Assembly: GCA_043815245.1 (NCBI GenBank)
Contig: JBDRJD010000028.1
Location: forward strand, 1 to 60,170
Direction: 5' to 3'
Length of the DNA: 60,170 nt
DNA from: an archaeon
Lineage (GTDB): Archaea > Nanobdellota > Nanobdellia > Pacearchaeales > GW2011-AR1
The notes under the pieces are model-generated. The model saw nothing but the letters and a program-made list of their open reading frames with translations, had not been told where the DNA came from and did not search any database. Positions within the stretch are counted from its first letter, which is position 1; each line of letters starts with the position of its first letter. Position numbers and translations under genes: made by a program. Below are positions 4,460-37,575 of this stretch, one piece after another.

Positions 4460-4536
4460 CTCTCAACATGAAAATCGGAGATTTTCAAACATTGAAAATT
4501 TAAAAATTAAAGAAAAATTTCCAATATCATGAAAAT
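4460..4536. repeat. Two-hairpin micro-insert flanked by 9-bp direct repeat CATGAAAAT (4467-4475 and 4528-4536)
   Basis: Hairpin TGAAAATC-GGA-GATTTTCA, then an imperfect ATTGAAAATTT/AAATTTCCAAT hairpin. The second direct repeat contains the pheA ATG. Confidence 0.6.
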
Positions 4537-5365
4537 AGCTTACTTGGGCCCTGAAAAAACCTTTACTGAAAAAGCAACTAGGGAGCTTTTTCCAAATGAT
4601 GACTTAGTGGCAATGCAGCCAATTAGGAAAGCTATACTGGCTGTTGAAAATGGAGAGGTGGACATGGGGGTTGTTCCAATTGAAAATTTTTATAATGGGG
4701 AAGTAAGAGAAACCTTAGATACTTTAACTGAGTGTTCTAAGGCAAAAATAGTTCAAGAAAAGGCCATGACAATTGTATTATGTTTGGGAGCATTAGAAAG
4801 CCACGGAGAGATAAAAAGGATTTTATCTAAAGATCAGGCAATAGAACAGTCAAGTCGGCATTTAAGCGAAAAATATCCCAATACACAAACAATGGCTGTC
4901 CCTAGTACTGCAGAAGCTGCAATTATGATTAAAAGGGAAAATCTAAATGATGCTGCTGCAATTGCTTCTGAAAGCGCATTAGTTGAAGCGGGTTTTAAAA
5001 TTATTGATAAAGATATTTGCCCAAATAATAAGACAAGATTTGCAGTTTTAAGTAGAGAAAAAACTAAGCCTACTGGAGATGACAAGACTTTTTTGGCAAT
5101 TCATCCTCCAATAAGCGATAAGCCCGGAGTTTTGTATAGTAGTTTAAAGGTTTTTGCGGAATTAAATATAAATTTAGAGTTAATCATGTCAAGGCCAGAT
5201 GGAAAAAAGGCCTATTTCTTTTATCTTGAGTTAGACGGGTATGAAGATGACGAAAATATAAAAATGGCAGTTAACAATCTAAGATTATATCTTGACCCAG
5301 AAAATAAATATTCGGATACAGTAAAAATTCTTGGAAGTTATCCTAATTCCCATTGGAAAAACTAG
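4529..5365 (+). CDS. pheA: Prephenate dehydratase with ACT domain
   Basis: YLGPEKTFTE, GVVPIENFYNGEV, NKTRFAVL, ACT motifs DKPGVL, IMSRP, FFYLE. Confidence 0.9.
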   Translation: MKIAYLGPEKTFTEKATRELFPNDDLVAMQPIRKAILAVENGEVDMGVVPIENFYNGEVRETLDTLTECSKAKIVQEKAMTIVLCLGALESHGEIKRILSKDQAIEQSSRHLSEKYPNTQTMAVPSTAEAAIMIKRENLNDAAAIASESALVEAGFKIIDKDICPNNKTRFAVLSREKTKPTGDDKTFLAIHPPISDKPGVLYSSLKVFAELNINLELIMSRPDGKKAYFFYLELDGYEDDENIKMAVNNLRLYLDPENKYSDTVKILGSYPNSHWKN

Positions 5366-5366
5366 C

Positions 5367-6155
5367 ATGAAAATCAATATTATAGGTGGAAGTGGAATTA
5401 TGGGGAGTGTCCATAAACCTTTATTTGAAAATGCAGGGCATGAGGTGATTATCTCTGGTAGGGGATCTGAAATAAGTATGGAAGACGCTGCAGAACAGGC
5501 AGATCTGACAATTGTGAGCGTACCCATTTCTGTAACTGAAGATGTGATAAAGAAAGTTGCCCCGAATTGCAAGGCAATTATGGATTTCACTGGATTAAAG
5601 GTATTTCCAATAGAAGCTATGTTAAAATACACGGAAGGGGGGTGTGAGGTGGCGGGATTGCATCCCATGTACGGAAAGGTAGACTCAATTAAAGGAAGGA
5701 ATGTAGTTTATTGCAGGACTTCGAGAACTGGAGAAAAATGTGAAAAGATAGTTAAGGTTATAGAGGACGCGGGTGCCAAAATAATAGAAATGTCACCAAA
5801 AAAACATGATTTAATTGTTTCTGCATTAGGCCAGAATATTAGGGCTGAGATAGTGGAGGCGTATGCACTTTTAATGGAAGATTATGATATAAACGCAGAG
5901 GAAATGTATGGAATTGCTTCCCCTTTAAACAAGATAATCTTAGATGCAATTGCAAGACAGATAAATCCAAAAAATGATGGTATGTATAGGGAAATGAGAG
6001 AGTTCAATCAGTATGATAAAGAAGTTAAAGAAAAGTTTTTGAAAAATCTTGAAAAAGTAAATGAAAAAGATGTTCCTGAGAGAATCAGAAAATTATTTGG
6101 AAATAAACTAGAGGAAGCGCAGGAAAGAGCAAAAAAATATGCTGACATAAAATGA
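5367..6155 (+). CDS. tyrA: Prephenate/arogenate dehydrogenase
   Basis: IIGGSGIMG Rossmann motif, DFTGLK, GLHPMYG, HD in the dimerisation region. ATG at 5367 directly follows the pheA stop. Confidence 0.8.
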   Translation: MKINIIGGSGIMGSVHKPLFENAGHEVIISGRGSEISMEDAAEQADLTIVSVPISVTEDVIKKVAPNCKAIMDFTGLKVFPIEAMLKYTEGGCEVAGLHPMYGKVDSIKGRNVVYCRTSRTGEKCEKIVKVIEDAGAKIIEMSPKKHDLIVSALGQNIRAEIVEAYALLMEDYDINAEEMYGIASPLNKIILDAIARQINPKNDGMYREMREFNQYDKEVKEKFLKNLEKVNEKDVPERIRKLFGNKLEEAQERAKKYADIK

Positions 6156-6835
6156 TAATTGATATAGCGGACTTAAGGATTAGAATAAACCAGATTAATG
6201 AAAGGATAATCTCTGGATTAAAGGATAGATCGAGATATAAGTTGAATAAAGATATCTTTAGTGAGGAATTTTCCAGTGGAATGACCTGGTTTGAATATAG
6301 GCTGAAAAAAGAGCAGGACTTGGATTCTGAGTTTGGAAGGTTTGAGTTTCCAGATCAGTCTCCAATAGTGTTTAAGAAAGAGGAGTTAACTAGCCCCAGA
6401 AAACAGAGGATTATTCCTGAGACTGAAGTGAAAATGCTTAGTTTTGATATTGGGAAAGAGATAATTGAATTTTACAAAGAAATTCTTCCTGAGTTGTGCA
6501 GTGAAGGTGAAGAAAGTGAAAGTTATGGGGAGATAGCTAAGCTGGATGTTAGTAATATTCTACTTTTTAGTGAGCGAATAAGTGGTATTGGGAAGTGTGT
6601 GGCTCAGGCTAAATTACAGAAAAATCCTGGATTAAAGGACTTGCAAGACGAAGAGCAGATTAAAGGCATCTTAGCTGACCTTTCAAGAGAAAGAGAGGTG
6701 ATAGACGAAGCTAAAAGAATTGCTGAGAAGTATGAATTAAAAAATCCTGGATTAGTTGAGAAGATTTTCAAGAAGATAATTGAGCTCAATACTAAAATGC
6801 AAGTTGAGTATGTGAGAAGCTTTTTAAACTCCTAA
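6152..6835 (+). CDS. Monofunctional chorismate mutase, yeast/plant (Aro7-like) type
   Basis: DLRIRI, GRFEFPDQSP, YGEIAKLD...SERISGIGKCVAQAK and TKMQVEY parallel yeast Aro7 (NIRDEL, RRFESPDETP, FGSVATRD...SRRIHFGKFVAEAK, EVEVEY). ATGA overlap with tyrA. Confidence 0.75.
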   Translation: MIIDIADLRIRINQINERIISGLKDRSRYKLNKDIFSEEFSSGMTWFEYRLKKEQDLDSEFGRFEFPDQSPIVFKKEELTSPRKQRIIPETEVKMLSFDIGKEIIEFYKEILPELCSEGEESESYGEIAKLDVSNILLFSERISGIGKCVAQAKLQKNPGLKDLQDEEQIKGILADLSREREVIDEAKRIAEKYELKNPGLVEKIFKKIIELNTKMQVEYVRSFLNS

Positions 6836-6883
6836 ATTGTGCTATCTTTAACCCGGTAGAAAGAGTTCTGAGCAAGATTTAAA

Positions 6884-7609
6884 ATGATTGAAACACCAAC
6901 ACTAACTAAAGGAAGAATAGAAGCTGCAAAAAAATATCAAGGCCATCCTGTAGTTAAAGAGTTTAGGAGAATGAGAAATTACCTTTGTGCAGCTGAAGAA
7001 GCTTATGATATTTTAGAGGAGGAAGAGTTAAAAGAAAGAGTAATTGAAGCTACAGGTATGGTAATTGCTGAAAATTTAAAGAGTGTTGAAATATCCAATA
7101 TGGGAGAAGAAGATATTATTTCTATTTGGAGCTGGGTTTGTAATGAGAGTTCTGGAATTGTGCCAGCATTAAGGCACAGATTATCTTCTATTATTCCTGC
7201 AGTGTATGCAATTAGAGGTATGGAATATTCGGACTGGGGGTTTGTACCTATTCAAGTAGCTCAGACAAACACATTGCCTGAAGAGTGTTTACAAGATACA
7301 GTTAATGCTTGCAGATTTTACTCAAAATTACAAGAAGTTTACCAAAGCATTGATGAAATAGAGTTTTATACAAAAGGAATTAGGGGAGGATTTACTGCTT
7401 TAGGGGATTTAACAAAAAAAGCTTACCGAGAGGATGACAAAGAAGCATTAGCTGAAATTGGAAGACTTGAACAATGGTCAAGTGAGCATGAAGATGATTT
7501 GCTAGGAACAATTGAAGAAAATTTTAATAATGGTTTGGGTGGATTGATTGGATATATTAAGAGACATTATATAGAGAAAATAGAAGATTCTACATCTTCT
7601 CAAGAATAG
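6884..7609 (+). CDS. Hypothetical protein
   Basis: 241-aa ORF with host-like composition and no recognised motif. Confidence 0.55.
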   Translation: MIETPTLTKGRIEAAKKYQGHPVVKEFRRMRNYLCAAEEAYDILEEEELKERVIEATGMVIAENLKSVEISNMGEEDIISIWSWVCNESSGIVPALRHRLSSIIPAVYAIRGMEYSDWGFVPIQVAQTNTLPEECLQDTVNACRFYSKLQEVYQSIDEIEFYTKGIRGGFTALGDLTKKAYREDDKEALAEIGRLEQWSSEHEDDLLGTIEENFNNGLGGLIGYIKRHYIEKIEDSTSSQE

Positions 7610-8495
7610 CAATTCGCTTCTCAATTGGGGGGTGAGTAGAAAATAATCCTTGGACTTTCTTTCTATAAGGATCTGACATAAATAAAGGGGCGACTGCTTT
7701 GTTGATTTTGCGTTTTTCTTGTTCAGAGACGTGCTCAGATTGAATCTTCTTTAAAGCTGATTTTAGTCCTGGTGGGTATCTAGTAAACTTTACTGCAGAA
7801 GCATCAGCTGCAAATTCTCTTTTTCTAGATATTGCAAAGCTGACAAGATTAGCCACAAGTGGAGCTAAAATCGCAAGTATAATCCCAATTAAAAGCAAGA
7901 TTGCACCACCTTTACTATCTCTATCTCTGCTACCACCTGAATACCATAGGCTTCTTAAGAATATTTGAGAGAAAATTGCGATCATCCCCACTAGGACTGC
8001 AGTAAGAGTCATAAAACGTATATCATAATTTGCAATGTGACTTAGTTCGTGACCTATAACTCCTTCAAGCTCTTGTTTATTAAGCTTTTTTATAGCGCCA
8101 GTTGTAACGCAAATTACTGCATGCTCTGGATCACGGCCAGAAGCAAAGGCATTTATTTGTTCATTTTCCATAATGTAAATCTTTGGCATTGGCAGGCCAG
8201 AGGCAATTGTAAGTCCCTCTACTGCATGGAATAACTGCCTGTGTTCTGTGCTAGAAGCAAGTTTTGCGCGAACTGAAGCTATTGCAATCTTATCTGAGTT
8301 ATAATAACCTGTGATTACATAAATCATTGAGATTATAATAGAAAAAATCATGATTACAAAGAAGTAGCCTGGGTCAAGAGCCATTGAAATTACAAAACCC
8401 ACAATTATAAAGAAGACTACAATTGAGATTATTAGCAGCACTGACTTAATCTTATTTCTCTGAATTTGATCGTGAAAAGATACTCTTTTTTCCAT
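7590..8495 (-). CDS. htpX: M48 family Zn metalloprotease HtpX
   Basis: INAFASG, HELSH, SRKREFAAD, STHPP; TM segments. Confidence 0.9.
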   Translation of the reverse strand: MEKRVSFHDQIQRNKIKSVLLIISIVVFFIIVGFVISMALDPGYFFVIMIFSIIISMIYVITGYYNSDKIAIASVRAKLASSTEHRQLFHAVEGLTIASGLPMPKIYIMENEQINAFASGRDPEHAVICVTTGAIKKLNKQELEGVIGHELSHIANYDIRFMTLTAVLVGMIAIFSQIFLRSLWYSGGSRDRDSKGGAILLLIGIILAILAPLVANLVSFAISRKREFAADASAVKFTRYPPGLKSALKKIQSEHVSEQEKRKINKAVAPLFMSDPYRKKVQGLFSTHPPIEKRIAILEKM

Positions 8496-8569
8496 TATTA
8501 ATTGTAGATTTTACTGTATTTAAAATTAGCTAACATGCGCTCCACCATCCCCCAAAACATTATTAATAC

Positions 8570-9175
8570 TTAACTAAGAGATTTCAAAACATCTTCAGTG
8601 ACTTTCTCAATTGACTGCTGTCCATTAATCTTAATTGAGTCATACTCTGACAGAATTGGCTCTGTCTGTTCATGATAGACTTTTAATCTTTGTCTAATTG
8701 GTGCTTCGTTATCATCTGTTCTTCTTACAAGCCTGCCGCCACAGAAATCACACTTTCCTTTAACTTTAGGAGGATTAGTAATCTCATTAAAAACAGCAGC
8801 GCATAACTCGCAGGTAACTCTTGAGGTTAATCTACGAACCGCTTCATCATCAGAAATTGAAATTTCAATAACTTTATCTATAGAAGTAATTTTTTCAAGC
8901 TCTTTGACTTGCTCTAAATTTCTTGGAAAGCCGTCTAGGATAAATCCCTCTTTACAGTCTTTTTGGTTAATTCTTCGTTGGATTAATTCTAAAACAATTT
9001 CTGAAGGAGCAAGCATTCCTTTAGAAGTGTATTCTTCAATTTTCTCCTTTAATTCACCTGTAGCATTTCTTAACAAATCTCCTGAAGAAATATGGGGAAT
9101 TTTAAGCTTAGAGGCAATTATCTTTCCCTGAGTTCCTTTTCCTGAAGCTTGGGGACCTACAAAAACTAACTTCAT
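8570..9175 (-). CDS. adk: Adenylate kinase (bacterial-type, Zn lid)
   Basis: GPQASGKGTQ P-loop, HISSGDLLR, GFILDGFPR, lid CELC...CDFC, R.DD. Start set at ATG 9175. Confidence 0.9.
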   Translation of the reverse strand: MKLVFVGPQASGKGTQGKIIASKLKIPHISSGDLLRNATGELKEKIEEYTSKGMLAPSEIVLELIQRRINQKDCKEGFILDGFPRNLEQVKELEKITSIDKVIEISISDDEAVRRLTSRVTCELCAAVFNEITNPPKVKGKCDFCGGRLVRRTDDNEAPIRQRLKVYHEQTEPILSEYDSIKINGQQSIEKVTEDVLKSLS

Positions 9176-9176
9176 T

Positions 9177-9737
9177 TTAAAAATCAATTTTAGGCACTGC
9201 TCTAGATGCTTCTGGTATTTTTAAGAATTCTCTTTCTTTTTTACCAAAAATACTTGCAAACATAACCCCTGGAAAAGTCTTTACTGAGTTGTTATATGAA
9301 AGAATTGAATCATTGTAAAACTGCCTTGAGTAAGCTATCTTATCTTCTATTGCAGATAATTCCTGCTGAAGATGAAGGAAATTTTCATTTGCCTTTAAAT
9401 TAGGATAGTTTTCTGCTATTGCGAATATGCTTTTTAATGCGGTTTGAAGCTGGTTTCCTGCTTTCATTTTAGAAGAAATATCTTTTGCAGAAAGTAATGC
9501 TTTTCTTGCATTAGTTACTTCTGTGATGACTTTTTTCTCGTGTTTCATGTAACCTTTTACAGAAGCTAACAAATTTGGAACTAAATCAGCTCTTTTCCTA
9601 AGCTGAACATCAATCTGACTTAAAGAATTATCAATTCTATTGCCGAGAACTACAAATCTGTTAAAGTAGTAAATAAGCATGATTACAACAAGTAAGATAA
9701 TAATTGCTATCACCCAAAGAATGATTCCTATGACCAT
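9177..9737 (-). CDS. lemA: LemA family protein
   Basis: N-terminal TM, IDVQLRKRADLVPNL, AENYPNLKAN.NF, RQFYND, FP..+FA. Confidence 0.9.
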   Translation of the reverse strand: MVIGIILWVIAIIILLVVIMLIYYFNRFVVLGNRIDNSLSQIDVQLRKRADLVPNLLASVKGYMKHEKKVITEVTNARKALLSAKDISSKMKAGNQLQTALKSIFAIAENYPNLKANENFLHLQQELSAIEDKIAYSRQFYNDSILSYNNSVKTFPGVMFASIFGKKEREFLKIPEASRAVPKIDF

Positions 9738-9810
9738 GACTAAAGAAATAAAGGATGGTTTATAAAGGTTTCCGAAAAAGATTTAAATAATCCCTCTCAA
9801 AAGTTGATAT

Positions 9811-10392
9811 ATGAAAATCCCGGTTTTAAAGGGTGAGAAGCGTAGAAAAGCCAGGAGAAAACACTTCCGCACTGAAGTAAGAGAGGTTGCTATTTATAGA
9901 GCTTTTAAGGAGAATGTTTCTAATCCTAAGTCTGTTTTTTATCCTGCTTGCGGGTGGAATATAAGCCCCTCAAAAGTTTTTGAAAATATAACTTTTGTGG
10001 ATCCTAATCCAAATGTGTTCGCTATACTGAAAACTTGCGGATTTGATGCATTTTGGGGATGTATCCAAAACTATGTTCCTGAAGAAGAGCATGATTTACT
10101 TATTTTGCAAGGATTTTACACAGGATTAATAAAAGAAACTTTACGTTTTGTGCCTGAAGAAGGTTATATTCTTCTGGGACCTCTTTATTCAAATTCATTA
10201 GGTTTATCGGGGAGCATGTATGAAGAGGCTAAGATAATCCAATCTACAAAAAGATTTTCATGTTATGGGGAGATTAATTTTGTTGAGCGAAAAAATAAAG
10301 ATAGTAGTGAGGTTACTTTTACAAGAAACTTAGAAGGAAAGTTAGCTGGAACTTCAAAGAGTCATAGATGTAGAAAAAAAAATAGGTGCTGA
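9811..10392 (+). CDS. Hypothetical protein (possible methyltransferase-like fold; possibly frameshifted 3' end)
   Basis: VFYPACG...ITFVDPN resembles a SAM-binding motif I region. TATA box 23 nt upstream of the ATG. Confidence 0.5.
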   Translation: MKIPVLKGEKRRKARRKHFRTEVREVAIYRAFKENVSNPKSVFYPACGWNISPSKVFENITFVDPNPNVFAILKTCGFDAFWGCIQNYVPEEEHDLLILQGFYTGLIKETLRFVPEEGYILLGPLYSNSLGLSGSMYEEAKIIQSTKRFSCYGEINFVERKNKDSSEVTFTRNLEGKLAGTSKSHRCRKKNRC

Positions 10393-10427
10393 CTGGTATA
10401 TATTTAAAAGAGATTAGCAAAGATCAA

Positions 10428-10570
10428 AAAGTTTCAAGAGTTTATCCCCAAGGAATGACTTTTTGAAACTTTAGGATGCATGAAAATTCTGTTAAAGAAT
10501 TTTCTGCCCCGAAAATTTATTAAATTTTCGCTGCTCGGAAATGTTTTCTGGCACTTTACATTTCTGACAT
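10428..10570. repeat. Four-hairpin structured element, copy 1
   Basis: Stems AAAGTTTCAA/TTGAAACTTT, GAAAATTCT/AGAATTTTC, CGAAAATTT/AAATTTTCG and GAAATGT/ACATTTC. Linkers are shared with 23905-24035. Confidence 0.7.
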
Positions 10571-10603
10571 AAGCTTTAAAAATACTAAATAATAGTAATA
10601 TTT

Positions 10604-10981: not shown

Positions 10982-10998
10982 AAAGAGGAAATTCTAAT

Positions 10999-11187: not shown

Positions 11188-11208
11188 ACTGGTTCTAAAT
11201 GCGAAAGA

Positions 11209-11281
11209 TTTATATATTATGTTAACTATAGTTAACTATACACAGGACACCTACGGTTTCCTCTGTAAAACCTTCCCTTAA
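11209..11281 (+). promoter_or_regulatory. TATA box plus perfect 16-bp palindromic operator plus leader motif, copy 1
   Basis: TTTATA 11209-14; GTTAACTATAGTTAAC 11221-36; ACCTACGG...TTCCCTTAA 11249-81. Spacing is identical to the copy at 15621. Confidence 0.75.
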
Positions 11282-11314
11282 TGGGGGTAAATAAATTTTC
11301 AGTTGGAGGTTAAA

Positions 11315-11683
11315 ATGTATTCTTTACCGCAAGAGATAGAAGTCTGGTACATAATTCCGGGAATTAGAAGAGAACTAGCTAGAGAACTAACACAAAAGCA
11401 TGATTTGACTTATGAGAAGGCTGGAAATATCTTGGGAGTCAGTAAAGCTGCTATCTCGCAGTATTTAAAAAACAAGAGAGCAAAAGAGATTAAATTTTCA
11501 GATAGCGTTAAAAAGGAGATTGAGAAGTCAGCGAAGGTCATAGTTAAAGATAATAAGATGGCTGTAAGGGAGATTATGAGGCTAATTTCAGTTGTGAAAA
11601 AGTCCAAATGTGCATGCGACATCTGTAAAAAGCATAATAAAGGAATCTTAGATATATGCGAGGGAAAAGTGAAAGAGTGTTAA
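11315..11683 (+). CDS. HTH transcriptional regulator (COG2522-like) with C-terminal Cys cluster
   Basis: PQEIEVWYIIP.IRRELA, HTH AG.ILGVSKAAISQYL, C-terminal CACDICKKH...C. GGAGGT SD precedes ATG 11315. Confidence 0.75.
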   Translation: MYSLPQEIEVWYIIPGIRRELARELTQKHDLTYEKAGNILGVSKAAISQYLKNKRAKEIKFSDSVKKEIEKSAKVIVKDNKMAVREIMRLISVVKKSKCACDICKKHNKGILDICEGKVKEC

Positions 11684-11692
11684 TTTAGGATT

Positions 11693-15620: not shown

Positions 15621-15719
15621 TTTATATACTTTGTTAACTATAGTTAACTAAGCACGAGATACCTACGGTTTCTTCTGTAGGATCTTCCCTTAAGACAACA
15701 CCTAGGGCTAACTAAGCAC
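15621..15719 (+). promoter_or_regulatory. TATA box plus palindromic operator plus leader motif, copy 2, with 11-bp direct repeat
   Basis: TTTATA 15621-26; GTTAACTATAGTTAAC 15633-48; ACCTACGG...TTCCCTTAA 15661-93; TAACTAAGCAC at 15645-55 and 15709-19. Confidence 0.75.
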
Positions 15720-23904: not shown

Positions 23905-24035
23905 AGAAGTCCGTGAGTGTTTTTGGACTTCTGGATGCGAGAAAATTCCTTACAAATTGGGAATTTTCTGCACAGAAAATCTCACGATTTTCTTGTGCTC
24001 AGAAAAATCTGCCAATGTAACAGTTTTTCTGACAT
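23905..24035. repeat. Four-hairpin structured element, copy 2 (nrdR 5' region)
   Basis: Stems AGAAGTCC/GGACTTCT, AGAAAATTCC/GGAATTTTCT, GCACAGAAAATC/GATTTTC(T)TGTGC and TCAGAAAAA/TTTTTCTGA. Confidence 0.7.
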
Positions 24036-30901: not shown

Positions 30902-31522
30902 TTACAAGGATAGTCTTTGCTTTGCTTCGTATCTTATTCTATCCTGCATTCCATCAATATCTCCGTGGGCATAAGGAAGGACAAAAAAAATATCTGAGTT
31001 TAATTCTGCAATTTCTCTGTATCCTTTACAAACTCTCTGATGAAATTCAATTGCTTCGCTTTCAAATCTGTCTGCACCTGCGTTTTTTAATCCAACTTCA
31101 GGATCAAGGTCTATAAGAATTGCTAAATCAGGGCGCATTCCAAAAGTTACTTTTTCATTTAGGGTGCGGATATAATTTAGATCCATGCCCCTTCCATAAC
31201 CTTGATAAGCTTCAGAAGCGTATCTTCCTCTATCTTGGAGGATAATTCTTCCAGCGTTTCGAGCCGGTATAATGAGGCCTGCATAAATGTCTGCTCTTGC
31301 AGCTTCAAACAAGAGTAATTCTGCTAGGGGATCATGGAGTTCTGTTTCAGGAGATAATAGTATTCGTCTTATTGCTTCTCCAGCAGATGTTGCTCCGGGT
31401 TCTCTTGCTGTAAGGGGATTATAACCTTTCTCTCTTAACCATTCTTCAAATAAACTAATCTGAGTAGTTTTGCCGCAGCCCTCGCCGCCTTCAAACATAA
31501 TTAGCTTGCCTTTTTCTGACAT
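30902..31522 (-). CDS. tmk: Thymidylate (dTMP) kinase
   Basis: FEGGEGCGKTTQ, REPG, LLFEAAR, DR...S..AYQGYGRG, PDL. Confidence 0.92.
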   Translation of the reverse strand: MSEKGKLIMFEGGEGCGKTTQISLFEEWLREKGYNPLTAREPGATSAGEAIRRILLSPETELHDPLAELLLFEAARADIYAGLIIPARNAGRIILQDRGRYASEAYQGYGRGMDLNYIRTLNEKVTFGMRPDLAILIDLDPEVGLKNAGADRFESEAIEFHQRVCKGYREIAELNSDIFFVLPYAHGDIDGMQDRIRYEAKQRLSL

Positions 31523-31531
31523 TTTAGAAAA

Positions 31532-32704
31532 TTAAACTACTCTTGTTAGACCATTTGCTGGCCCCCAAACACAAGGAGAATCACAGCCTGTAGATTCAAT
31601 CTTGCACCTTGAAGTTGCGTTTGCAGCAATTTCTGGGCGAACTGATCCATACATTTCAGCAACAGCTTGGGTATTTTTCATTATTTCGTATTGAGCATGC
31701 CCGCAAAGGCGTTGGCGCATTTTTGAAATGTAATGCCTTGGAGTTCCGGTTTCATTTACTTTTAAAAACTGAGCTTGGGGAAAATCAGAGGTTGCAACTT
31801 CTTCTAAGTCTCCAGTCCACTCTCGAACTAGAGATCTATCCGGAAGTATAATTCCTGGAATAAAGAAACCAAGAGGAGCTCCTGGCTGATGTCCTCCAGA
31901 GATATGATAATCAATAGTTCTATGACGGTGAGCTTGTGCAAGTCCTGCAAAGCTCATTAGGTAATTAATTGCATAGGTATCTGCAAAATGCGGTGCAACT
32001 GTATGGGGTTGAAATAAACTGAGATGATGCTCTATTTTACTTGTTAAGTCAGCTTCTCTAAATTTTGCAATATCCTCTTGAGCAATAAATGCCTCAAAAC
32101 AATCTGCAAGCCTTGAAAACATTGGATTTCCGGACTGCCTATATTCTGGAATTAGAGCTTCCATTTCGTGAGCGATAAAATTAAGTTGTCTTAAGCTGAG
32201 AGTGTGAGTCATTTTTGTTGGAGTGAAAACAGAAGTCATGTAACGCGCGTTTTCTTGAACTAACTTTTTAATTGCAACTTGTCTATCTTCTGAATTACCC
32301 ATTGCAGGATAGACTGCACCAATTAAAGGAGTTAGCCGGTCCATCCACTTGTCATAAAGTGCATTTTGAACTGGCTCAATATCCTCCATTCTAGTATACC
32401 TAGCTGATTTTTCTGAAGTAGCCATGTCTTGCTCGTTATTAAGGACCATTGCCATAATCTTTGGGAGGCCTTGCATGTAAAAGCTAAGAGTTGTGTGTTC
32501 AAACGGGCTATGATGCCCAGATGTAAGTAAGCGGTCCATTAGAGCTGCTTTATCTTGCTCATTTTGCACGACTACAAAGTCTTTATCAGTATAACAGACT
32601 CTTGCATTATCTCTTCCAAATTTCAACATTGGTTCAAGATTTCTCCAGCCTTCTGTTGCCCCTATTAACTCAATTCTCATGGCTGCACCATCTTTTTCTG
32701 CCAT
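31532..32704 (-). CDS. thyX: Flavin-dependent thymidylate synthase, tandem ThyX domains
   Basis: GHHSPFEH, SEKSARY, Q.NARY..., second-domain AQAHRHR. ATG 32704 lies 23 nt below the TATA at 32728-33. Confidence 0.8.
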   Translation of the reverse strand: MAEKDGAAMRIELIGATEGWRNLEPMLKFGRDNARVCYTDKDFVVVQNEQDKAALMDRLLTSGHHSPFEHTTLSFYMQGLPKIMAMVLNNEQDMATSEKSARYTRMEDIEPVQNALYDKWMDRLTPLIGAVYPAMGNSEDRQVAIKKLVQENARYMTSVFTPTKMTHTLSLRQLNFIAHEMEALIPEYRQSGNPMFSRLADCFEAFIAQEDIAKFREADLTSKIEHHLSLFQPHTVAPHFADTYAINYLMSFAGLAQAHRHRTIDYHISGGHQPGAPLGFFIPGIILPDRSLVREWTGDLEEVATSDFPQAQFLKVNETGTPRHYISKMRQRLCGHAQYEIMKNTQAVAEMYGSVRPEIAANATSRCKIESTGCDSPCVWGPANGLTRVV

Positions 32705-32844
32705 ACTCAAATCCAGGATCAGAACTTTATAAAGAAGGTTGCAACAGAAAGTATATTTTGAAAAATACTATTGAGAAATAGTTAAGTTTAAATAAGACTT
32801 CAGGATAGTTTTGATATGCAAGAATTGAAGAGGTGTGAAGGAAA

Positions 32845-33177
32845 ATGGCAGAGGCAAAGAACGGAGTTGAAGAAATCACTGGGAATAATATTGAAGAGAA
32901 GTTGGGAAAACCTCTCGTAGTTCTAGATTTTTTTGCTGAGTGGTGTATGCCTTGTCTTATGATGGCTCCTGTTGTTGAAGAGCTACATGATAAGCTAAAG
33001 GGGAAGGTAACTTTTTTTAAGGTGAATATTGATGATCATCAGGACCTTGCTAGAAAGTTCAAAGTTGCTTCTATTCCTACATTAATAATTTTTAGTAAGG
33101 GTGTGGAAAAAGAGAGGATTGTAGGCAGTATACCTGCTGATGCAATTGAAGATAAAATTACGAGTTTTTTAAGCTAA
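32845..33177 (+). CDS. trxA: Thioredoxin (WCMPC variant)
   Basis: DFFAEWCMPC, VNID, SIPTL; GAGGTG SD. Confidence 0.88.
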   Translation: MAEAKNGVEEITGNNIEEKLGKPLVVLDFFAEWCMPCLMMAPVVEELHDKLKGKVTFFKVNIDDHQDLARKFKVASIPTLIIFSKGVEKERIVGSIPADAIEDKITSFLS

Positions 33178-33178
33178 G

Positions 33179-33628
33179 ATGGGAACAGGCTCTGGAAATG
33201 TGGATGTTGATGAAACAACTGAAATTATGAGGCGAGCTTTTAAAGTAAAGCCGGTTTTACAAGACTTAAGAGCTAGGCTTACTGAAGTAGTTTCTAAGCT
33301 AAATAAAAAAAGGCCGTTGAGAGAGAGATTACATAGAAGAACTTACGACTTGGAGACAGATGACGGAAATTTTTTAATTATCCGATCTGCACCCTTGCCT
33401 TATGGACCTGCAGCAGCATGGGGCTATAGGAAGGATCCAAAAACAGTAGCAAAAATTAATGTAGTGGAAAAACTAGAATCTGGAGATAAACTGCCTTCGC
33501 TAAGTTTAGAGGGGTATATTGAAGGGGGTTGGTGGGGTGCAGAAAGGATTGGGAGGGTGGTTAGTTATTTGCATGAAAAGCATAATATTCCAATTGGTGA
33601 TCTGGCAGAATATCTTCTTAGAGGATAG
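33179..33628 (+). CDS. Hypothetical protein
   Basis: 149-aa ORF abutting the trxA stop. Confidence 0.5.
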   Translation: MGTGSGNVDVDETTEIMRRAFKVKPVLQDLRARLTEVVSKLNKKRPLRERLHRRTYDLETDDGNFLIIRSAPLPYGPAAAWGYRKDPKTVAKINVVEKLESGDKLPSLSLEGYIEGGWWGAERIGRVVSYLHEKHNIPIGDLAEYLLRG

Positions 33629-33670
33629 TTGTAAGAAGTTTTTTAAAGTTAAATTATCTACTTTTCTTAA

Positions 33671-33742
33671 GGATCCGTAGCTCAATAAGGGAAGGGTCCC
33701 TTATCAACCCTCAGACACTGAGGATGTTCGCTACGTATCGAT
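33671..33742 (+). ncRNA. Predicted structured 72-nt 5' leader of pre-tRNA-Lys, beginning with a duplicate of tRNA nt 1-14
   Basis: GGATCCGTAGCTCA at 33671 and 33743; hairpins ATAAGGGA/TCCCTTAT and CCTCAG/CTGAGG; GCTACGTATC is complementary to the repeat; TATA TTTAAA 33642-47 is 23 nt upstream. Confidence 0.55.
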
Positions 33743-33865
33743 GGATCCGTAGCTCAGTTGGTTAGAGCACTGGCCTTTTACAAAAAACTTCGTTTTTTGT
33801 CCTTCAAAAAAACAATGTTTTTTGAAGTAAGCCAGGTGTCGGGGGTTCAAGTCCCTCCGGGTCCA
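33743..33865 (+). tRNA. trnK: tRNA-Lys (anticodon UUU) with 49-nt canonical 37/38 intron (33781-33829); CCA not encoded
   Basis: Full cloverleaf: GGATCCG/CGGGTCC, GCTC/GAGC, CTGGC/GCCAG, GGGGG-TTCAAGT-CCCTC. BHB with central helix CUUU/GAAG and inner A6/U6 helix. Confidence 0.93.
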
Positions 33866-34014
33866 TTTTAAGTATATATTTGGGTTTTTGACAAAATCGT
33901 CAAAATCCGAAAGGTTTAAAAACCTAATTTTGATTTCTTTTAGTATTATAGAGTTGTAATCGCAAATATGCAACTTGCACAACTAAATAAATAGCCTGCC
34001 TCAAATTATCTGAA

Positions 34015-34221
34015 ATGCACGTTCTACAGCCAAAACATTCTAAGACAAGCCAAAAAGAAGCGAAAGAGATATTGCAAAAACTGAATATATCTAGTTCTCA
34101 GTTGCCAAAAATCAATGTAGAAGACCCGGCACTACCAGAAGGTTGTGAAGAGGGAGATTTAATAAAAATTGAGAGGAAGACTGACAAAGGGACTGTAGTT
34201 TATTATCGTATTGTGGTTTAA
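34015..34221 (+). CDS. rpo5: RNA polymerase subunit Rpo5 (H)
   Basis: HVLQPKH, QLPKI...DP, GD.IKI.R, YYRIV. Confidence 0.93.
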   Translation: MHVLQPKHSKTSQKEAKEILQKLNISSSQLPKINVEDPALPEGCEEGDLIKIERKTDKGTVVYYRIVV

Positions 34222-34247
34222 ATCAATGGAAAAAAATTTTTAATACA

Positions 34248-37200
34248 ATGAAACAAGATAAACACATAATTGTAAAGAAATATCTATCTCAGCATTCGCT
34301 TGTAGAAAGTAACATTGTTTCTTTTAATAATTTTATTAAGCTGAGGATGCAGAAAATAGTAGATGAACTTTCTCAGAACCTTTCAAATGATGAGATTGAG
34401 ATAAAGCTTGGGAAAGTGAGAGTGGGAAGGCCTAATGTGATTGAATCAGATGGAAGTTCAAAGAATGTTTTACCAACAGAAGCAAGGTTAAGAAACTTAA
34501 CTTACTCCGCTCCTGTTTTTCTTGAAATAAGTATAAAACAGGAAGGTCAGATAGAAGAAAGCCAAGATGTAGAAATTGGAAGAATACCAGTAATTGTTAG
34601 GAGTGATGTGTGTAACACTTCTGGTATGGGTAAAGACGAGCTTGAAAAAGCCTACATTGATCCGTTAGATGTTGGGGGCTACTTTATTGTGAATGGTAAT
34701 GAAAGGATAATGGTGATGACAGAAGATTTAGCAGCTAACCAACCTTTTATTGAGAAATCCAAGGGGAAGCTTATGCTTAGATTATTTAGCCAGAGGGGGG
34801 CTTACAGGATACCCGTATCTATAACAGAAACAAGTGATGGAATCTTGGAAATATCTTTTTCTAGATTCAGGAATATTCCTGCAATAGTTTTACTGAAAAC
34901 TCTGGGAATGTTAAAAGAAGCGGATATTTCAAGGTTAGTTGGTAAGGAAACAGATAGTTTTATTGTAAATTTATATGAATTTGCTGGTGTTCATTCAGTA
35001 GATGACGCGATGATGTTTATTGCAGAAAAAACAAACCTTCAAGGAACTAAAAAAGAAATGGTAGACAGAGTAAAGCAAAGGATAGACAGTTACTTTATGC
35101 CACATATAGGTCTGACAAAGGAAGATAGATATGAAAAAGCGATTACGCTATGTAAGTTCATTAAACAATTTTATATTGCTAAGGAAAACCCAAATATAAT
35201 TACTGATAAAGATCACTATGCAAATAAAAGAGTAAGGCTGAGCGGAGACTTGCTGTCTGATCTTTTTAGAGTGAACCTGAATATATTATTGAGAGATATT
35301 CAATACTCCTTGCAGAAGATTGCTAAGAGGAAGAAGTTTTACAGTCTTAAAACTATAGCCAAGTCTACTTTGTTTTCTCATAGAGTAGAGAGCGCAATTG
35401 CAACAGGGAGTTGGATTGGTGAGAGAACAGGAGTAACCCAGAATATGGACAAGACAAATTATCTTGCAATGCTATCTCAACTACAAAGAGTTTCTTCTAT
35501 GCTACCTGGGGAGCAAGAGAACTTCCTGGCAAGAACGTTACACCCCACACATTATGGAAGATTTTGTCCAATCGAAACTCCAGAGGGTACTGAAATCGGA
35601 CTGAGAAAAAATCTTGCGATATTATCTAGAGTGTCTACTGCGGTAAAAATGGATGAGGATGAATTCATAAAAATTCTTGAGGGATTTGGAATGTTAAGAG
35701 AGAAAGAAGGCCAGAAGCACGGGAAGTCGGATGTATTTTTTAATGGAAGATTTATAGGGAGTGTGGAGGACTATAAGAAATTTATAGGAGACATTAGAGG
35801 GAGGAGAAGAGCCTCACAACTACCAATCGAATTAAGTGTAAGGTATGATAAGCACATAGAGAATGTGATTATTTCTACTGAAATAGGTAGAGTTTTTAGG
35901 CCCTTGATTATAGCAGAAAACGGGCAGGTCAAGTTTACTAACGAACACGCCTTACTTTTAGAGCAAGACAAAATTACCTGGGATGATTTGATTAAGCAGG
36001 GAGTTATAGAGTATCTAGATGCAAGTGAAGAAGAGAATGCACTAGTTGCCTTGGGAAAAGAAGAAGTAACCCCTGAGCACACACACTTAGAGATAGACCA
36101 TATAGATTTTTTAGGATTAGTAACTTCTCTTGTACCTTTTGCAAATCACGACCAGAGTTCTAGGTTGAATAGGGGAAGTAAAACTCAAAAGCAGGCCCTA
36201 GGAATTTATGCTGCAAACTTCCCAGTAAGATTAGACACAGATGTAAGTATCCTTCACTACCCTCAAAAACCTATAGTGAGAAGCTTTGTTTATGACACTC
36301 TTAACATCTATCCAGCAGGCCAGAATTTGGTGGTTGCTGTAATGACCCATGAAGGATATAATATGGAAGATGCAATAGTATTAAATGGTGGGAGTGTTGC
36401 GAGGGGTTTAGGGAGATCAACATATTTCAGACCTTATACTTCAACAGAACTTAATTATGCTGGAGGATTAGCAGACGAAATTTCTATTCCAAGTAAAGAC
36501 ACTTCAGGATATAGGACTGAAGAGAGTTACAGATTTTTAGAAGATGATGGGTTAGCTTATCCAGAAGCTGCAATGAAAGAATCAGAGGTAGTAATAGGAA
36601 AAACATCTCCTCCAAAATTCCTTTCAGAAGCAAGAGAAATTACAGTTAGAACAAGAAAAGAAAACAGCTCAGTAATAAGGCAAGAAGAGAAAGGCACTGT
36701 GGATGCTGTATTTGTAACTGTAGAAGATGAAGGAAATAAAGTTGTGCAAGTCAGAACAAGGGATCAAAGACTTCCCGAGTTAGGTGATAAGTTCTCAACT
36801 CCTCATGGGCAGAAAGGAGTTATTGGGATGATAGCAGATGAAAATGATATACCCTTCACATCGCGTGGAATAAAACCTGATTTGATATTTAACCCTCACG
36901 GAATTCCGAGTAGGATGACTGTGGGATATCTAATGGAACTTTTAGCTGGAAAGGCTGGCGCTATAGAGGGGGAGGTTGTTGATGGAACTGCTTTTGCGGG
37001 ACAGCCGGTTGAAGAATTAGAAAAACAATTGAAAGCAAAAGGGTTTAGATATGATGGTAAAGAAACAATGTATAATGGCGTGACTGGGAAGATGATGACG
37101 GCTAAGATTTATATTGGTAGTATGTACTACTTGAAACTTAAGTATATGGTGAGTAATAAGATGCATGCAAGGGCTTCTGGAAAAGTGGCTTTACTAACCA

Positions 37201-37514
37201 GGCAGCCTATCGAGGGGAGGGCCAGAGGAGGAGCTTTAAGATTGGGAGAGATGGAACAGCAAGCACTTGTTGCACATGGTTCTTCTTTATTGTTAAAGGA
37301 GAGATATGATTCTGATAAGGTTGTTGTGCATGTTTGTACAAGATGCGGCTCAATGGCCATTAAAGATGTGATAAGGAATAAGATTACGTGTCCAGCATGT
37401 AATGGTAATGAAATTGAGCCTGTAGAAATTTCTTATGCATTTAAGTTATTATTAGAAGAACTTCAAGGTTTGCATATATTTACTAAATTTGATTTAAAGA
37501 ATAAATACGAATGA
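34248..37514 (+). CDS. rpo2: RNA polymerase subunit Rpo2 (B, unsplit)
   Basis: GGYFIVNG.ER, CP.ETPEG, GDKF...HGQKG, RQP.EGR.RGG.LR.GEME. Confidence 0.97.
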   Translation: MKQDKHIIVKKYLSQHSLVESNIVSFNNFIKLRMQKIVDELSQNLSNDEIEIKLGKVRVGRPNVIESDGSSKNVLPTEARLRNLTYSAPVFLEISIKQEGQIEESQDVEIGRIPVIVRSDVCNTSGMGKDELEKAYIDPLDVGGYFIVNGNERIMVMTEDLAANQPFIEKSKGKLMLRLFSQRGAYRIPVSITETSDGILEISFSRFRNIPAIVLLKTLGMLKEADISRLVGKETDSFIVNLYEFAGVHSVDDAMMFIAEKTNLQGTKKEMVDRVKQRIDSYFMPHIGLTKEDRYEKAITLCKFIKQFYIAKENPNIITDKDHYANKRVRLSGDLLSDLFRVNLNILLRDIQYSLQKIAKRKKFYSLKTIAKSTLFSHRVESAIATGSWIGERTGVTQNMDKTNYLAMLSQLQRVSSMLPGEQENFLARTLHPTHYGRFCPIETPEGTEIGLRKNLAILSRVSTAVKMDEDEFIKILEGFGMLREKEGQKHGKSDVFFNGRFIGSVEDYKKFIGDIRGRRRASQLPIELSVRYDKHIENVIISTEIGRVFRPLIIAENGQVKFTNEHALLLEQDKITWDDLIKQGVIEYLDASEEENALVALGKEEVTPEHTHLEIDHIDFLGLVTSLVPFANHDQSSRLNRGSKTQKQALGIYAANFPVRLDTDVSILHYPQKPIVRSFVYDTLNIYPAGQNLVVAVMTHEGYNMEDAIVLNGGSVARGLGRSTYFRPYTSTELNYAGGLADEISIPSKDTSGYRTEESYRFLEDDGLAYPEAAMKESEVVIGKTSPPKFLSEAREITVRTRKENSSVIRQEEKGTVDAVFVTVEDEGNKVVQVRTRDQRLPELGDKFSTPHGQKGVIGMIADENDIPFTSRGIKPDLIFNPHGIPSRMTVGYLMELLAGKAGAIEGEVVDGTAFAGQPVEELEKQLKAKGFRYDGKETMYNGVTGKMMTAKIYIGSMYYLKLKYMVSNKMHARASGKVALLTRQPIEGRARGGALRLGEMEQQALVAHGSSLLLKERYDSDKVVVHVCTRCGSMAIKDVIRNKITCPACNGNEIEPVEISYAFKLLLEELQGLHIFTKFDLKNKYE

Positions 37515-37575
37515 AAATGAAACATTTTCAAGCATTTAAATTTCGAAAAATTAGGGGGGAAATTTAAATACGAAT
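37502..37575. repeat. Two-hairpin micro-insert flanked by 11-bp direct repeat TAAATACGAAT
   Basis: Direct repeat at 37502-12 and 37565-75; hairpins TGAAAATG/CATTTTCA and ATTTAAATTTC/GAAATTTAAAT. Confidence 0.7.

Follow-up and report, generated by a model that had tools for sequence, protein, structure and literature searches.

Short hairpin-forming elements interspersed at expression signals of a DPANN archaeon and a possible origin by template switching

Four sites in a 60,170-nt stretch of archaeal DNA (the window) carry short interspersed elements, about 45-120 nt long, that form hairpins; they belong to a class that is common in this family of DPANN archaea and does not constitute one family. 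At the two sites proven to be insertions, 11-14 nt of target were re-copied (9-24 nt elsewhere), and therefore an intact tRNA 5' end or stop/start junction follows the element. We propose, with moderate confidence, that these elements are non-autonomous and are copied within the genome through template switches (copy-choice with snap-back) made as DNA is replicated or repaired, rather than inserted at staggered transposase cuts, because the duplications range in length from 9 to 24 nt, microhomology is seen at the junctions and the target is copied inverted. No description of this element class was found in the literature, and its mode of entry fits none of the transposition mechanisms described.

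A first-pass annotation of the genome under study (G000) had described four direct repeats, whose positions and sequences are all exact (4467/4528, 15645/15709, 33671/33743 and 37502/37565), as the borders of a single family with one layout. The coordinates and the existence of real micro-insertions stand; the single family with a uniform layout does not, as the inserts fall into three unrelated sequence families, each core having further genome copies:

Family A core: a hairpin module, also found in tRNA introns; site 3
Family B core: ACCTACGGTTTC..CTTCCCTT; site 2
Family C core: a GAAAAT hairpin accompanied by a TATA-like box; sites 1 and 4

Site 3 lies at a tRNA-Lys gene and shows the following arrangement:

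33671-33684, + strand: first copy of tRNA-Lys nt 1-14, GGATCCGTAGCTCA, ending at A14, directly behind the tRNA promoter
33685-33729, + strand: element X, family A
33730-33742, + strand: T', of which GCTACGTATCGA (33730-33741) is an inverted copy of the tRNA from nt 11 back to -1
33743-33865, + strand: tRNA-Lys(UUU), 58.2 bits, whose anticodon loop contains a canonical intron; nt 1-14 constitute the second copy of the repeat

Specifically, X consists of hairpin 1, ATAAGGGA-AGGG-TCCCTTAT (33685-33704), followed by CAAC, and hairpin 2, CCTCAG-ACA-CTGAGG (33709-33723), followed by ATGTTC. When the T at 33742, which immediately precedes the tRNA, is included, T' continues into the second copy as a palindrome without a loop, in which 10 of 12 positions match. 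In the same-genus comparison genome, G001, the tRNA-Lys ortholog has no upstream module, the promoter abuts the gene and GGATCCGTAGCTCA occurs once. As this congeneric site is empty, site 3 is a proven insertion.

The second proven insertion, site 4, separates rpoB from rpoA:

37502-37512, + strand: first repeat TAAATACGAAT, the last rpoB codons, the stop codon now being TGA
37511-37567, + strand: insert-created upstream reading frame MKMKHFQAFKFRKIRGEI-stop, 18 codons
37513-37564, + strand: family-C insert, 52 nt
37565-37575, + strand: second repeat TAAATACGAAT, giving with the following bases the ancestral junction GAATAAAATG(G)

The insert holds a hairpin, GAAAATG-AAA-CATTTTC (37513-37529), and a second one of 11 bp (37534-37569) that extends into the second repeat copy; a further copy, at G000:C34:57221, is 94% identical over 35 nt (E 5e-9). 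The ATG of the upstream frame overlaps the rpoB stop (ATGA), and the frame ends 11 nt before the ATG of rpoA, which starts at 37579. In G001 the insert is absent and the rpoB/rpoA spacer is 7 nt, while outgroup genera (counted either as six with a readable junction or as more than eight) have a short junction, the readable ones showing spacers of 1-13 nt of the form GAATAA(A)ATG. Site 4 is a proven insertion, since G001 is empty and other genera keep the short ancestral junction.

The empty alleles at sites 3 and 4, together with the short junction in other genera, bear out the earlier claim of micro-inserts at expression signals; the claim that the duplication preserves the downstream signal likewise holds, an intact tRNA 5' end or stop/start junction being found downstream of the insert. 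Two further ideas of the first-pass annotation hold in part. Two hairpins are present at site 3 (DNA fold z -3.6) and, with flanks, at site 4 (z -5.35), whereas sites 1 (z -1.2) and 2 (z -1.6) have one solid hairpin each. A hairpin arm that is an inverted target copy is systematic at site 3, whereas at sites 1 and 4 the arm is the element's own conserved sequence.

Comparison with chance separates the single repeats from the class. Within the window, repeats of at least 9 nt at offsets of 55-75 numbered 19, against 10.6 in local dinucleotide shuffles, and those of at least 11 nt numbered 3 against 0.87; other offset ranges of the real sequence gave 11-18 and 0-5, respectively. Because these counts resemble one another, the 9-mer and the two 11-mers are at background level, and, taken singly, only the 14-nt tRNA repeat of site 3 (expected 0.01 within the window) exceeds chance. 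Genome-wide, the class is clearly enriched over shuffles, with 18 repeats of at least 14 nt at a period of 50-95 (1.1 in shuffles) and 8 repeats of at least 11 nt enclosing a perfect 7-bp hairpin (1.5 in shuffles). In addition, among the 28 indels of 25-140 nt between G000 and G001, exact repeats of at least 10 nt occur in 4 (null 0.36%) and of at least 14 nt in 3 (null 0). The other 24 of these 28 micro-indels have no repeat of at least 10 nt, which counts against our preferred explanation. One micro-insert that had not been listed before belongs to a fourth family:

23911-24031, + strand: 121-nt insert of family D (CAGAAAAT..ATTTTCTG, GGATGCGAGAAA), upstream of nrdR

This insert has no flanking repeat and is absent at G001:C9:20623-20634.

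The two remaining sites are less secure. Site 1, at pheA (prephenate dehydratase, 4529-5365), comprises:

4467-4475, + strand: first repeat CATGAAAAT, overlapping the 5' arm of the family-C hairpin
4470-4486, + strand: family-C hairpin GAAAATC-GGA-GATTTTC
4476-4527, + strand: putative insert, 52 nt
4528-4536, + strand: second repeat CATGAAAAT, containing the pheA start codon

The apical pair of the family-C hairpin covaries among copies (C:G, G:C, T:A). The putative insert contains a second promoter-like box, TTTAAAAATT (4499-4508), which precedes the pheA ATG by 30 nt. Over 39 nt the insert matches G000:C7:10873 with 89.7% identity (E 1e-6), and in its promoter part it shares 88% identity with the ndk promoter of G001. 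Since the arm ATGAAAAT recurs in the family-C copies at site 4 and G000:C34:57221, the 9-nt "repeat" may be element sequence rather than target. The G001 contigs break exactly at this locus.

At site 2, which has no alignable empty allele, and at a related position, we find:

11240-11285, + strand: second family-B element in the window, directly after the same TATA box and GTTAACTATAGTTAAC palindrome as at site 2
15645-15655, + strand: first repeat TAACTAAGCAC, whose last 5 nt (AGCAC) are the 5' end of a family-B subtype
15656-15708, + strand: insert, 53 nt, with the family-B core ACCTACGGTTTC..CTTCCCTTAAG at 15661-15694
15709-15719, + strand: second repeat TAACTAAGCAC

The element at 11240-11285 has no flanking repeat. 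The family-B pattern ACCTA(A)CGGTTTY (at most one mismatch) has 28 matches in G000 and 17 in G001.

For sites 1 and 2 only, it is conceivable, if on balance doubtful, that the repeats arose by chance and that the "inserts" are promoter, terminator or leader modules that reside there as regulatory motifs. The background frequency of 9- and 11-nt repeats agrees with this, as do the assignment of ATGAAAAT to the family-C hairpin arm and of AGCAC to the family-B subtype, and the standard promoter inside the site-1 insert; the 85% identity over 74 nt between 11208-11281 and the promoter, operator and B element of site 2 could reflect duplication of the whole unit. Inserted copies of families B and C are nevertheless found elsewhere: site 4, the element at 11240-11285, which is absent from the orthologous site G001:C9:8759-8830, a family-B copy with a 15-nt repeat (G001:C3:60777) and another with a 22-nt repeat (G000:C34).

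Family A could be followed across genera. A covariance model of its module matched in 32 of 401 genomes (26 of 191 genera), and in the alignment 94% of cells are paired, with changes on both sides in 17 of 20 pairs, a level reached by 0 of 500 shuffles. The layout is fixed: the tRNA from about the transcription start to A14, X, an inverted copy from nt 11 back to about that start, and the intact tRNA. G000 itself has a second module at tRNA-Ile (upstream, C45) and a third tRNA module at C20:2191. T' follows its target (GCCAC with a GTGGC tRNA, GCTAT with a CATAGC tRNA) and in several cases forms a loop-less palindrome with the second copy. The X of tRNA-Ile is identical to that of site 3 at 41 of 45 positions, against 36-40 of 45 between genomes, which argues for copying within the genome.

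Under the template-switching model, the growing strand would leave the target, copy a donor element and return behind its departure point, producing the direct repeat; at tRNA genes it would first copy the opposite target strand, giving T', and junction microhomology would guide the switches. The model is built from sequence products, and its pathway steps are a proposal. It accommodates repeats of 9, 11, 11, 14, 15, 16-19, 22 and 24 nt, element termini that overlap the repeats, and tandem arrays of elements, and of the two mechanisms considered initially, templated snap-back repair thus fits better than a transposase-moved REP/MITE. The snap-back signature is not universal, since in metagenome L210 T' is only 7 nt long and the palindrome centre is absent. 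As probable consequences of the insertions, tRNA-Lys would be made with a structured 72-nt leader, removed by RNase P, and T' would pair with the spare 5' copy, so that this copy could not compete with the real 5' end when the tRNA folds. Between rpoB and rpoA, direct stop-start coupling would give way to a relay through the 18-codon reading frame.

That the module of site 3 is instead a D-loop intron, in which the first copy would serve as the genuine 5' exon and splicing would remove 72 nt ending at A14 of the second copy, we regard as very unlikely. X does serve as an intron module elsewhere, deletion of any 72-nt register within the repeat yields the same tRNA, and in the minimum-energy fold of the tRNA-Ile locus the 3' acceptor strand is paired to the first copy. 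At the required register, however, a check by hand against the folds showed no 4-bp helix with two 3-nt bulges, and RNase P RNA is present in the genome. Moreover, a perfect tRNA 5' end is found in every second copy, whereas first copies are mutated (C45, L038, L078, L093); in G077 the first copy has decayed by D-stem-breaking changes while T' still matches the real tRNA, which argues that the first copy is not a functional exon.

At C20:2191, whose tRNA has a different D-arm sequence, the boundaries again fall at tRNA positions 14 and 11, which suggests structure recognition or an RNA step more than simple microhomology. An RNA-mediated route, which we consider unlikely, would start from X as a tRNA-intron module, in RNA or DNA form, whose 3' end pairs with tRNA nt 7-11; extension on the pre-tRNA to its 5' end would give T', self-priming the second copy, and the product would recombine into the gene. 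In its favour, the same X forms canonical anticodon-loop introns with a proper bulge-helix-bulge (BHB) motif (tRNA-Ser of G018, metagenome tRNA-Gly L196), the order of helix GUAGC/GCUAC, 3-nt UCA and hairpin 1 copies the BHB 5' half, and the boundaries track tRNA position, not sequence. The left end of the repeat, always at -4 to +1 of the tRNA, fits the expected transcription start, because ordinary tRNA genes have a TATA box about 30 nt upstream. Conversely, site 3 does not allow a complete BHB to be drawn, T' is missing from families B and C, site 4 lies inside an operon rather than at a transcription start, and no reverse transcriptase was found in G000, such genes being present in 8 of the 15 X-bearing genomes and in 5 of the 13 that lack X.

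The window holds no transposase, as had been noted; elsewhere the genome has one IS200-type Y1 transposase gene (G000:C33:113-457). The search for mobilising enzymes proposed earlier thus returned one Y1 gene and no reverse transcriptase, and neither gene type tracks the elements. A REP/RAYT or MITE identity is not supported: terminal inverted repeats are absent, the duplications have no set length, and the end hairpins of this sole Y1 transposase are unrelated to X. Insertion of a miniature transposon at staggered cuts made by an enzyme in trans (Y1/HUH, casposase-like Cas1 or integrase), with hairpin 1 plus CAACCCTC as the would-be substrate of the encoded nuclease, appears quite improbable. 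The flanking repeats do resemble target-site duplications, casposons duplicate 14-15 nt (PMC5137440), and a 26-mer of the core identical across genera suggests horizontal mobility. Yet the duplications span 9-24 nt, staggered cuts leave the inverted target copy unexplained, IS200/IS605 elements leave no duplication, the core matched none of the viral contigs, and the distribution of Y1 genes (9 of 15 genomes with X, 4 of 13 without) is not significant. That nearly identical 26-mers are shared by different genera points to horizontal spread or strong constraint; copy-choice confined to one genome, the mechanism we prefer, leaves this unexplained.

Among known systems, MITEs and REP/BIME sequences (PMC3184786, PMC3733652) are likewise small, non-coding, hairpin-forming, interspersed, mostly intergenic and non-autonomous. 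The elements described here differ in having no terminal inverted repeats, a long and variable duplication (9-24 nt) and neither a RAYT association nor an autonomous counterpart; the GTAG beside the hairpin is simply tRNA nt 7-10. Integrases acting at archaeal tRNA genes leave a duplicated att core of fixed extent, which usually lies at the 3' part of the tRNA; as here, a tRNA is the target and the gene end is regenerated. Casposons (PMC5137440) share the tRNA gene targets, a 14-15 nt duplication and the regenerated gene end. Elements of both kinds measure kilobases and carry a gene for Cas1 or an integrase, whereas here 45-60 nt lie between the repeats, and no link to a Y1 transposase or reverse transcriptase gene was found.

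As far as the available account of the transposing BHB tRNA introns of Thermoproteales goes (bioRxiv 10.64898/2026.10.13.758758, summarising Fujishima et al. 2010), related short structured sequences recur there too in different tRNA genes and positions, and in relatives the family-A element X is itself a true intron module of the anticodon loop. Unlike the introns so described, our elements also lie outside exons (ahead of a tRNA, at protein-gene junctions and in arrays), have a duplicated target and an inverted copy of it at their borders, and at site 3 cannot form the full BHB motif. Mitochondrial hairpin and double-hairpin elements (PMC2800124) are similar in size (about 50-70 nt, with one or two hairpins), in invading intergenic regions, introns and gene ends, and in their patchy occurrence among close relatives with no known enzyme. 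They belong to a different domain of life and have no sequence relation to ours. To our knowledge, an inverted target copy and a tRNA-position-specific layout have not been reported for them. Polymerase-theta end joining provides another example of templated insertion. Finally, template-switch or snap-back insertions (ODIRA model, PMC10766183) share with our elements the direct and inverted flanking copies, the microhomology and the loop-less palindromes; such events use nearby sequence only, whereas here a dispersed conserved core, X, is also imported and the outcome is stereotyped across genera.

Pfam searches bore out the genes named in the first-pass annotation, namely prephenate dehydratase and both RNA polymerase subunits, and the positions of all four direct repeats proved exact. 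The genome that holds the window as its contig C28 (G000) has 921 kb on 45 contigs, with 36% GC and an estimated completeness of 85.7%. The features concerned are the following.

4467/4528: direct repeat of site 1, at pheA
4529-5365: prephenate dehydratase (pheA), Pfam
15645/15709: direct repeat of site 2
23911-24031: family-D insert of 121 nt (CAGAAAAT..ATTTTCTG, GGATGCGAGAAA), between a promoter-like palindrome and nrdR
33671/33743: direct repeat of site 3, at tRNA-Lys
33743-33865: tRNA-Lys(UUU) with a canonical anticodon-loop intron, 58.2 bits, the sole Rfam match in the window
34248-37514: RNA polymerase subunit B (Rpb2-like), Pfam
37502/37565: direct repeat of site 4, at the rpoB/rpoA junction
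37579-41058: RNA polymerase subunit A (Rpb1-like), Pfam

A permissive Rfam scan of 33640-33880 returned nothing but the tRNA, for which ARAGORN makes no call because of its intron.

As a set, and within the window, the four repeats are unimpressive. At offsets of 55-75 the window holds 19 repeats of at least 9 nt and 3 of at least 11 nt, compared with 10.6 and 0.87 in local dinucleotide shuffles, and with 11-18 and 0-5 in the real window at other offset ranges; among the four, the tRNA 14-mer alone is significant by itself (0.01 expected). The expectation that such structures exceed shuffled sequence held at the genome level, where repeats of at least 14 nt with a period of 50-95 numbered 18 against 1.1, and repeats of at least 11 nt enclosing a perfect 7-bp hairpin numbered 8 against 1.5. 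The hairpins ascribed to every insert are strong at site 3 (z -3.6) and, with flanks, at site 4 (z -5.35); sites 1 (z -1.2) and 2 (z -1.6) have weak ones.

Empty sites were sought in G001, a whole genome of 995 kb from the same genus with 72-76% nucleotide identity over aligned genes, and they were obtained for sites 3 and 4 and for neither site 1 nor site 2. Specifically, at site 3 the promoter region of G001 directly joins tRNA-Lys, GGATCCGTAGCTCA is present once, and the BLAST segments overlap by exactly 14 nt. At site 4, G001 reads ..AAATACGAATAA-GTTTAGA-ATG, and the rpoB/rpoA spacer measures 1-13 nt, in the form GAATAA(A)ATG, in six further genera with a readable junction. Since G001 and these genera keep short spacers, the second copy at site 4 is the ancestral junction and the preceding 63 nt are derived. 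At the position of site 1, contigs C7 and C9 of G001 end on either side, while the intergenic region of site 2 is unalignable and carries a different element. Comparison of the two genomes gave 28 indels of 25-140 nt, most of them without any repeat; exact repeats of at least 10 nt occurred at 4 (0.36% in random pseudo-insertions) and of at least 14 nt at 3 (0%). The left junction of site 3, queried against metagenomes for polymorphic alleles, gave no match.

The four inserts had been taken for one family, a claim that failed, since they have three unrelated cores. Sites 1 and 4 share the core of family C, a GAAAATN-NNN-NATTTTC hairpin with a covarying apical pair, followed by AARCATTTAAATTT; further copies lie at G000:C7:10873 and G000:C34:57221. 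In three copies ATGAAAAT is the hairpin arm itself, and therefore the 9-nt repeat of site 1 may be element sequence that matches the pheA start by chance. The contig ends G000:C7:10763-11020 and C18:34388-34529 carry the same sequence, including a family-C element, and are a probable assembly overlap.

Site 2 belongs to family B (core ..ACCTA(A)CGGTTTY..CTTCCCTT..), whose 5' pattern, allowing one mismatch at most, has 28 matches in G000 and 17 in G001. Its copies frequently adjoin tRNA ends and are at times arrayed in tandem; the window has another at 11240-11285, missing from the orthologous G001 site, and repeats at other copies measure 15 nt (G001:C3:60777) and 22 nt (G000:C34). At sites 1, 2 and 4 conserved termini of the element (AGCAC in B; AAT.. 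and ..TAAATA in C) share bases with the repeat ends, so that the junctions carry microhomology. Two promoters of the window (11221-11236 and 15633-15648) show a perfect palindrome, GTTAACTATAGTTAAC, after a TTTATATA box, the first of them upstream of a weakly ArsR-like HTH gene (11315-11683); near-identical sites exist at G001:C9:8759 and G001:C15:148529, and the palindrome has the look of an operator serving a small regulon.

The family-D insert is missing from G001 and has no flanking repeat. Its relatives were seen at G000:C45:12048, C27:874 and C4:10806, the last within a tRNA intron, as well as at G001:C9:13180-13490. A fifth family comprises inserts at G000:C37:7704-7816 and C19:9162-9258, with a common hairpin CCATCAACAGTCTATRGTTGATG; the C37 copy is flanked by an exact 19-nt repeat, ATGCTTATTTTCCATGTTT.

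The insert of site 3 (family A) is part of a module linked to tRNA genes. Folded along with the first copy, the 58 nt that separate the repeats give a three-way junction (-27.5 kcal/mol, z -4.0). At G000:C45, tRNA-Ile(GAU) has the same architecture ahead of it, with the flanking copy and the complementary segment changed to fit that tRNA; no tRNA-Ile was found in G001, a genome 80% complete. A third tRNA 5' module, at G000:C20:2191-2290, has a first copy (GCTCGTATCGCATA) ending at A14, an inverted copy of the tRNA 5' part (GCGATA) beginning at the complement of nt 11, and a different inner element (CAGAGAT-TAGAA-ATCTCTG plus TCCCTTCAACTC). A covariance model of module A built from five copies and searched over 401 genomes from 191 genera of the family detected it in 32 genomes and 26 genera. 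Of the cells in 27 distinct copies, 94% are paired, and changes on both sides are seen in 17 of the 20 pairs; no shuffle out of 500 did as well, and slid controls reached 37-53% pairing.

The layout is stereotyped: first copy, element X, inverted target copy (T') and, last, the intact tRNA. Counted in tRNA positions, the first copy extends from -4..+1 up to A14; X consists of hairpin 1, (C)AAC and a hairpin 2 that covaries; T', which is matched to the host tRNA (GCCAC against a GTGGC tRNA, GCTAT against a CATAGC tRNA), begins in every case at the complement of tRNA nt 11. In several cases, among them the window and loci L038 and L074 (10/12, 10/12 and 11/14, respectively), T' makes up with the second copy a palindrome that has no loop and has its centre at the left repeat end; others have a spacer after T', and in one metagenome case T' is just 7 nt long. 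Intact tRNA 5' repeats in this family measure 14-18 nt. X is identical at 41 of 45 positions within a genome and at 36-40 of 45 between genomes, even for the same tRNA, which points to intragenomic copying, with the target-derived parts newly made at each site. Readings of the module as a C/D-box, H/ACA or hammerhead RNA were rejected upon by-eye inspection, the needed boxes being missing or unconserved among copies.

Other irregularities were seen around tRNA genes. In G001, 191 extra nt follow tRNA-Lys (G001:C9:27924-28114), beginning with the hairpin ACAGAGTAGCTCA-CTGATGTTTC-GCTACTCTGT and with no tRNA after them, which looks like a module A with X almost wholly deleted. About one third of the 36 tRNA genes of G000 have an ..AACC-N-GGTT..-type hairpin element (family B or A-like, antisense) 0-5 nt from the 5' end, instead of the usual TATA box 30 nt upstream (for example C17:2070, C24:6007, C24:8351, C29:10930, C6:7570, C44:11737, C31:319, C7:182, C3:2296 and C13:1309). 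Duplications of tRNA 3' ends occur as well: GGCTGGCGCA of the C7 tRNA (182-253, minus strand) recurs 124 nt downstream, within a 134-nt tandem unit, and at G000:C32:2367-2600 CCTAACACCCGCA and GAATCCTAACAC recur 150-206 nt downstream.

The X core is also found outside tRNA leaders: at the rpoB/rpoA junction of another genus (genome G072, locus L031), beside tRNA 3' ends and in tandem arrays. Its exact 26-mer is present in 33 metagenome contigs and had no match in viral contigs; 12 of these contigs repeat, downstream, the 12 nt preceding the element, and 9 of the 12 cases are tRNA 5' ends with T'. X-derived tandem arrays at G018:C4:41700-41840 (L018/L037) and G218:C2 (L075) are partly N-masked. 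The period-61 and period-41 arrays in G136 were considered as CRISPR arrays and turned out to be tandem repeats, their 'spacers' being identical.

In relatives, the X core lies within the anticodon-loop introns of tRNA-Ser (G018) and of a metagenomic tRNA-Gly (L196), with hairpin 1 directly 3' of the 3-nt bulge of a proper bulge-helix-bulge (BHB) motif. An intron reading of the site-3 insert was considered as well; of a BHB, just the 5' half can be drawn there (helix, UCA, hairpin 1). A complete BHB at the 72-nt register, checked by hand against computed folds, cannot, as it needs a palindromic exon tetranucleotide and pairing flanks that site 3 lacks. The second copy and the downstream sequence make up a complete tRNA (58.2 bits), so that removal is not needed for a mature tRNA; first copies gather changes in relatives, including some that break the D stem in G077, where T' keeps its match to the real tRNA; and RNase P RNA is present in G000. 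For these reasons a 5' leader cut by RNase P is preferred over an intron. The RNase P RNA candidate (G000:C39:15531-15873) scores 67 bits, below the Rfam cut-off, and that of G001 scores 100 bits. We infer that tRNA-Lys has gained a structured 72-nt leader, in which T' would pair with the spare 5' copy and keep it from competing with the real 5' end in folding. Retention of T' for such masking would explain its occurrence at tRNA genes and its lack at protein-gene inserts. The site 4 insert creates an 18-codon reading frame whose ATG overlaps the new rpoB stop (ATGA) and which stops 11 nt short of the rpoA start. At site 1, the first ATG opens a frame of 11 codons, and the putative insert adds a second standard promoter.

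As regards the route of insertion, staggered transposase cuts are argued against by five observations: duplications of 9-24 nt, which within family B alone measure 0, 11, 15 or 22 nt; no terminal inverted repeats; microhomology at the junctions; an inverted target copy with its palindrome centre at the repeat boundary; and tandem arrays. A mobilising Y1 (IS200-type transposase) or reverse transcriptase (RT) gene elsewhere in the genome had been suggested, and the presence of such genes does not track the elements: of the 15 genomes with X, 9 have PF01797 (RAYT and IS200 TnpA counted together), as do 4 of the 13 that lack X. G000 has a stand-alone IS200-like Y1 gene on a 2.4-kb contig (C33:1-700; gene at 113-457, minus strand) with GC-rich hairpins on both sides, and G001 has none. 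These end hairpins, CCCCGCGCTAAAGCGCGAGG and CCCTGCTTTAAAGCAGTGG, were discarded as the source of the micro-inserts, to which they are unrelated.

We favour template switching with snap-back, which would act during replication or repair. A less likely variant is an insertion templated by RNA, for which three points speak: repeat left ends fall where transcription would be expected to begin, some 30 nt downstream of a TATA box; module-A boundaries are set by tRNA position, not by sequence; and the order helix, UCA, hairpin 1 imitates half a BHB. No RT gene is detectable in G000.

Bacteria and organelles are known to contain small hairpin repeats, most of which have no established way of moving. 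The present junctions are unusually informative, with a target duplication of variable length and, at tRNA genes, also an inverted copy with boundaries at tRNA positions 14 and 11; a mechanistic signature that is concrete and can be tested is thereby at hand for a type of change in very small genomes of archaea, which have just one copy of each tRNA gene and cannot do without it. It is conceivable, if rather unlikely, that the inserts record an undescribed archaeal process by which a hairpin element is copied in with newly templated direct and inverted target copies, a possible arrival route of tRNA introns of which the leader and gene-start inserts would be by-products. As the inverted copy is the exon-complementary strand for the BHB central helix, the same process could bring tRNA introns to new positions. 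X being a tRNA intron in relatives, the data bear on how archaeal tRNA introns arrive, a route that a recent preprint describes as open (10.64898/2026.10.13.758758). For annotation, such inserts matter by the decoy 5' ends of tRNAs, the long leaders with structure and the short relay frames in core operons such as rpoB-rpoA that they create.

A description of the duplicated-target and hairpin layout was not found by full-text searches of the literature, and the inserts were compared with known systems. MITEs are expected to have terminal inverted repeats, whereas in X, B and C neither end is an inverted copy of the opposite one, the sole inverted repeat at site 3 being the target copy; to duplicate a fixed, family-specific length, which varies here; and to have an autonomous parent with the same ends, whereas the only transposase found (G000:C33) has unrelated ends. 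In REP/BIME elements a conserved GTAG/CGTC tetranucleotide belongs to the element and lies 5' of its palindrome, and a Y1 (RAYT) gene co-occurs. Here GTAG precedes hairpin 1 by 4 nt at tRNA sites, where it consists of tRNA nt 7-10, and non-tRNA copies lack it; Y1 genes, as said above, do not track the elements. Palindromic elements derived from IS200/IS605 insert 3' of a short motif without duplication, unlike the proven inserts described here, which are flanked by duplications of 11-24 nt. Archaeal BHB tRNA introns have a 4-bp helix and two 3-nt bulges, or an accepted relaxed form; site 3 does not conform, whereas the same X in L196 does. Casposons have a Cas1 gene, terminal inverted repeats and a 14-15 nt duplication, and of these the 14-nt duplication length agrees at site 3, where the insert is non-coding and 58 nt long. 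Finally, the repeats of an integrase att duplication bound an element that encodes, or once encoded, an integrase, whereas only 58 nt lie between the repeats here, and module A places the same 45-nt core at different tRNAs, with repeats that fit each host tRNA.
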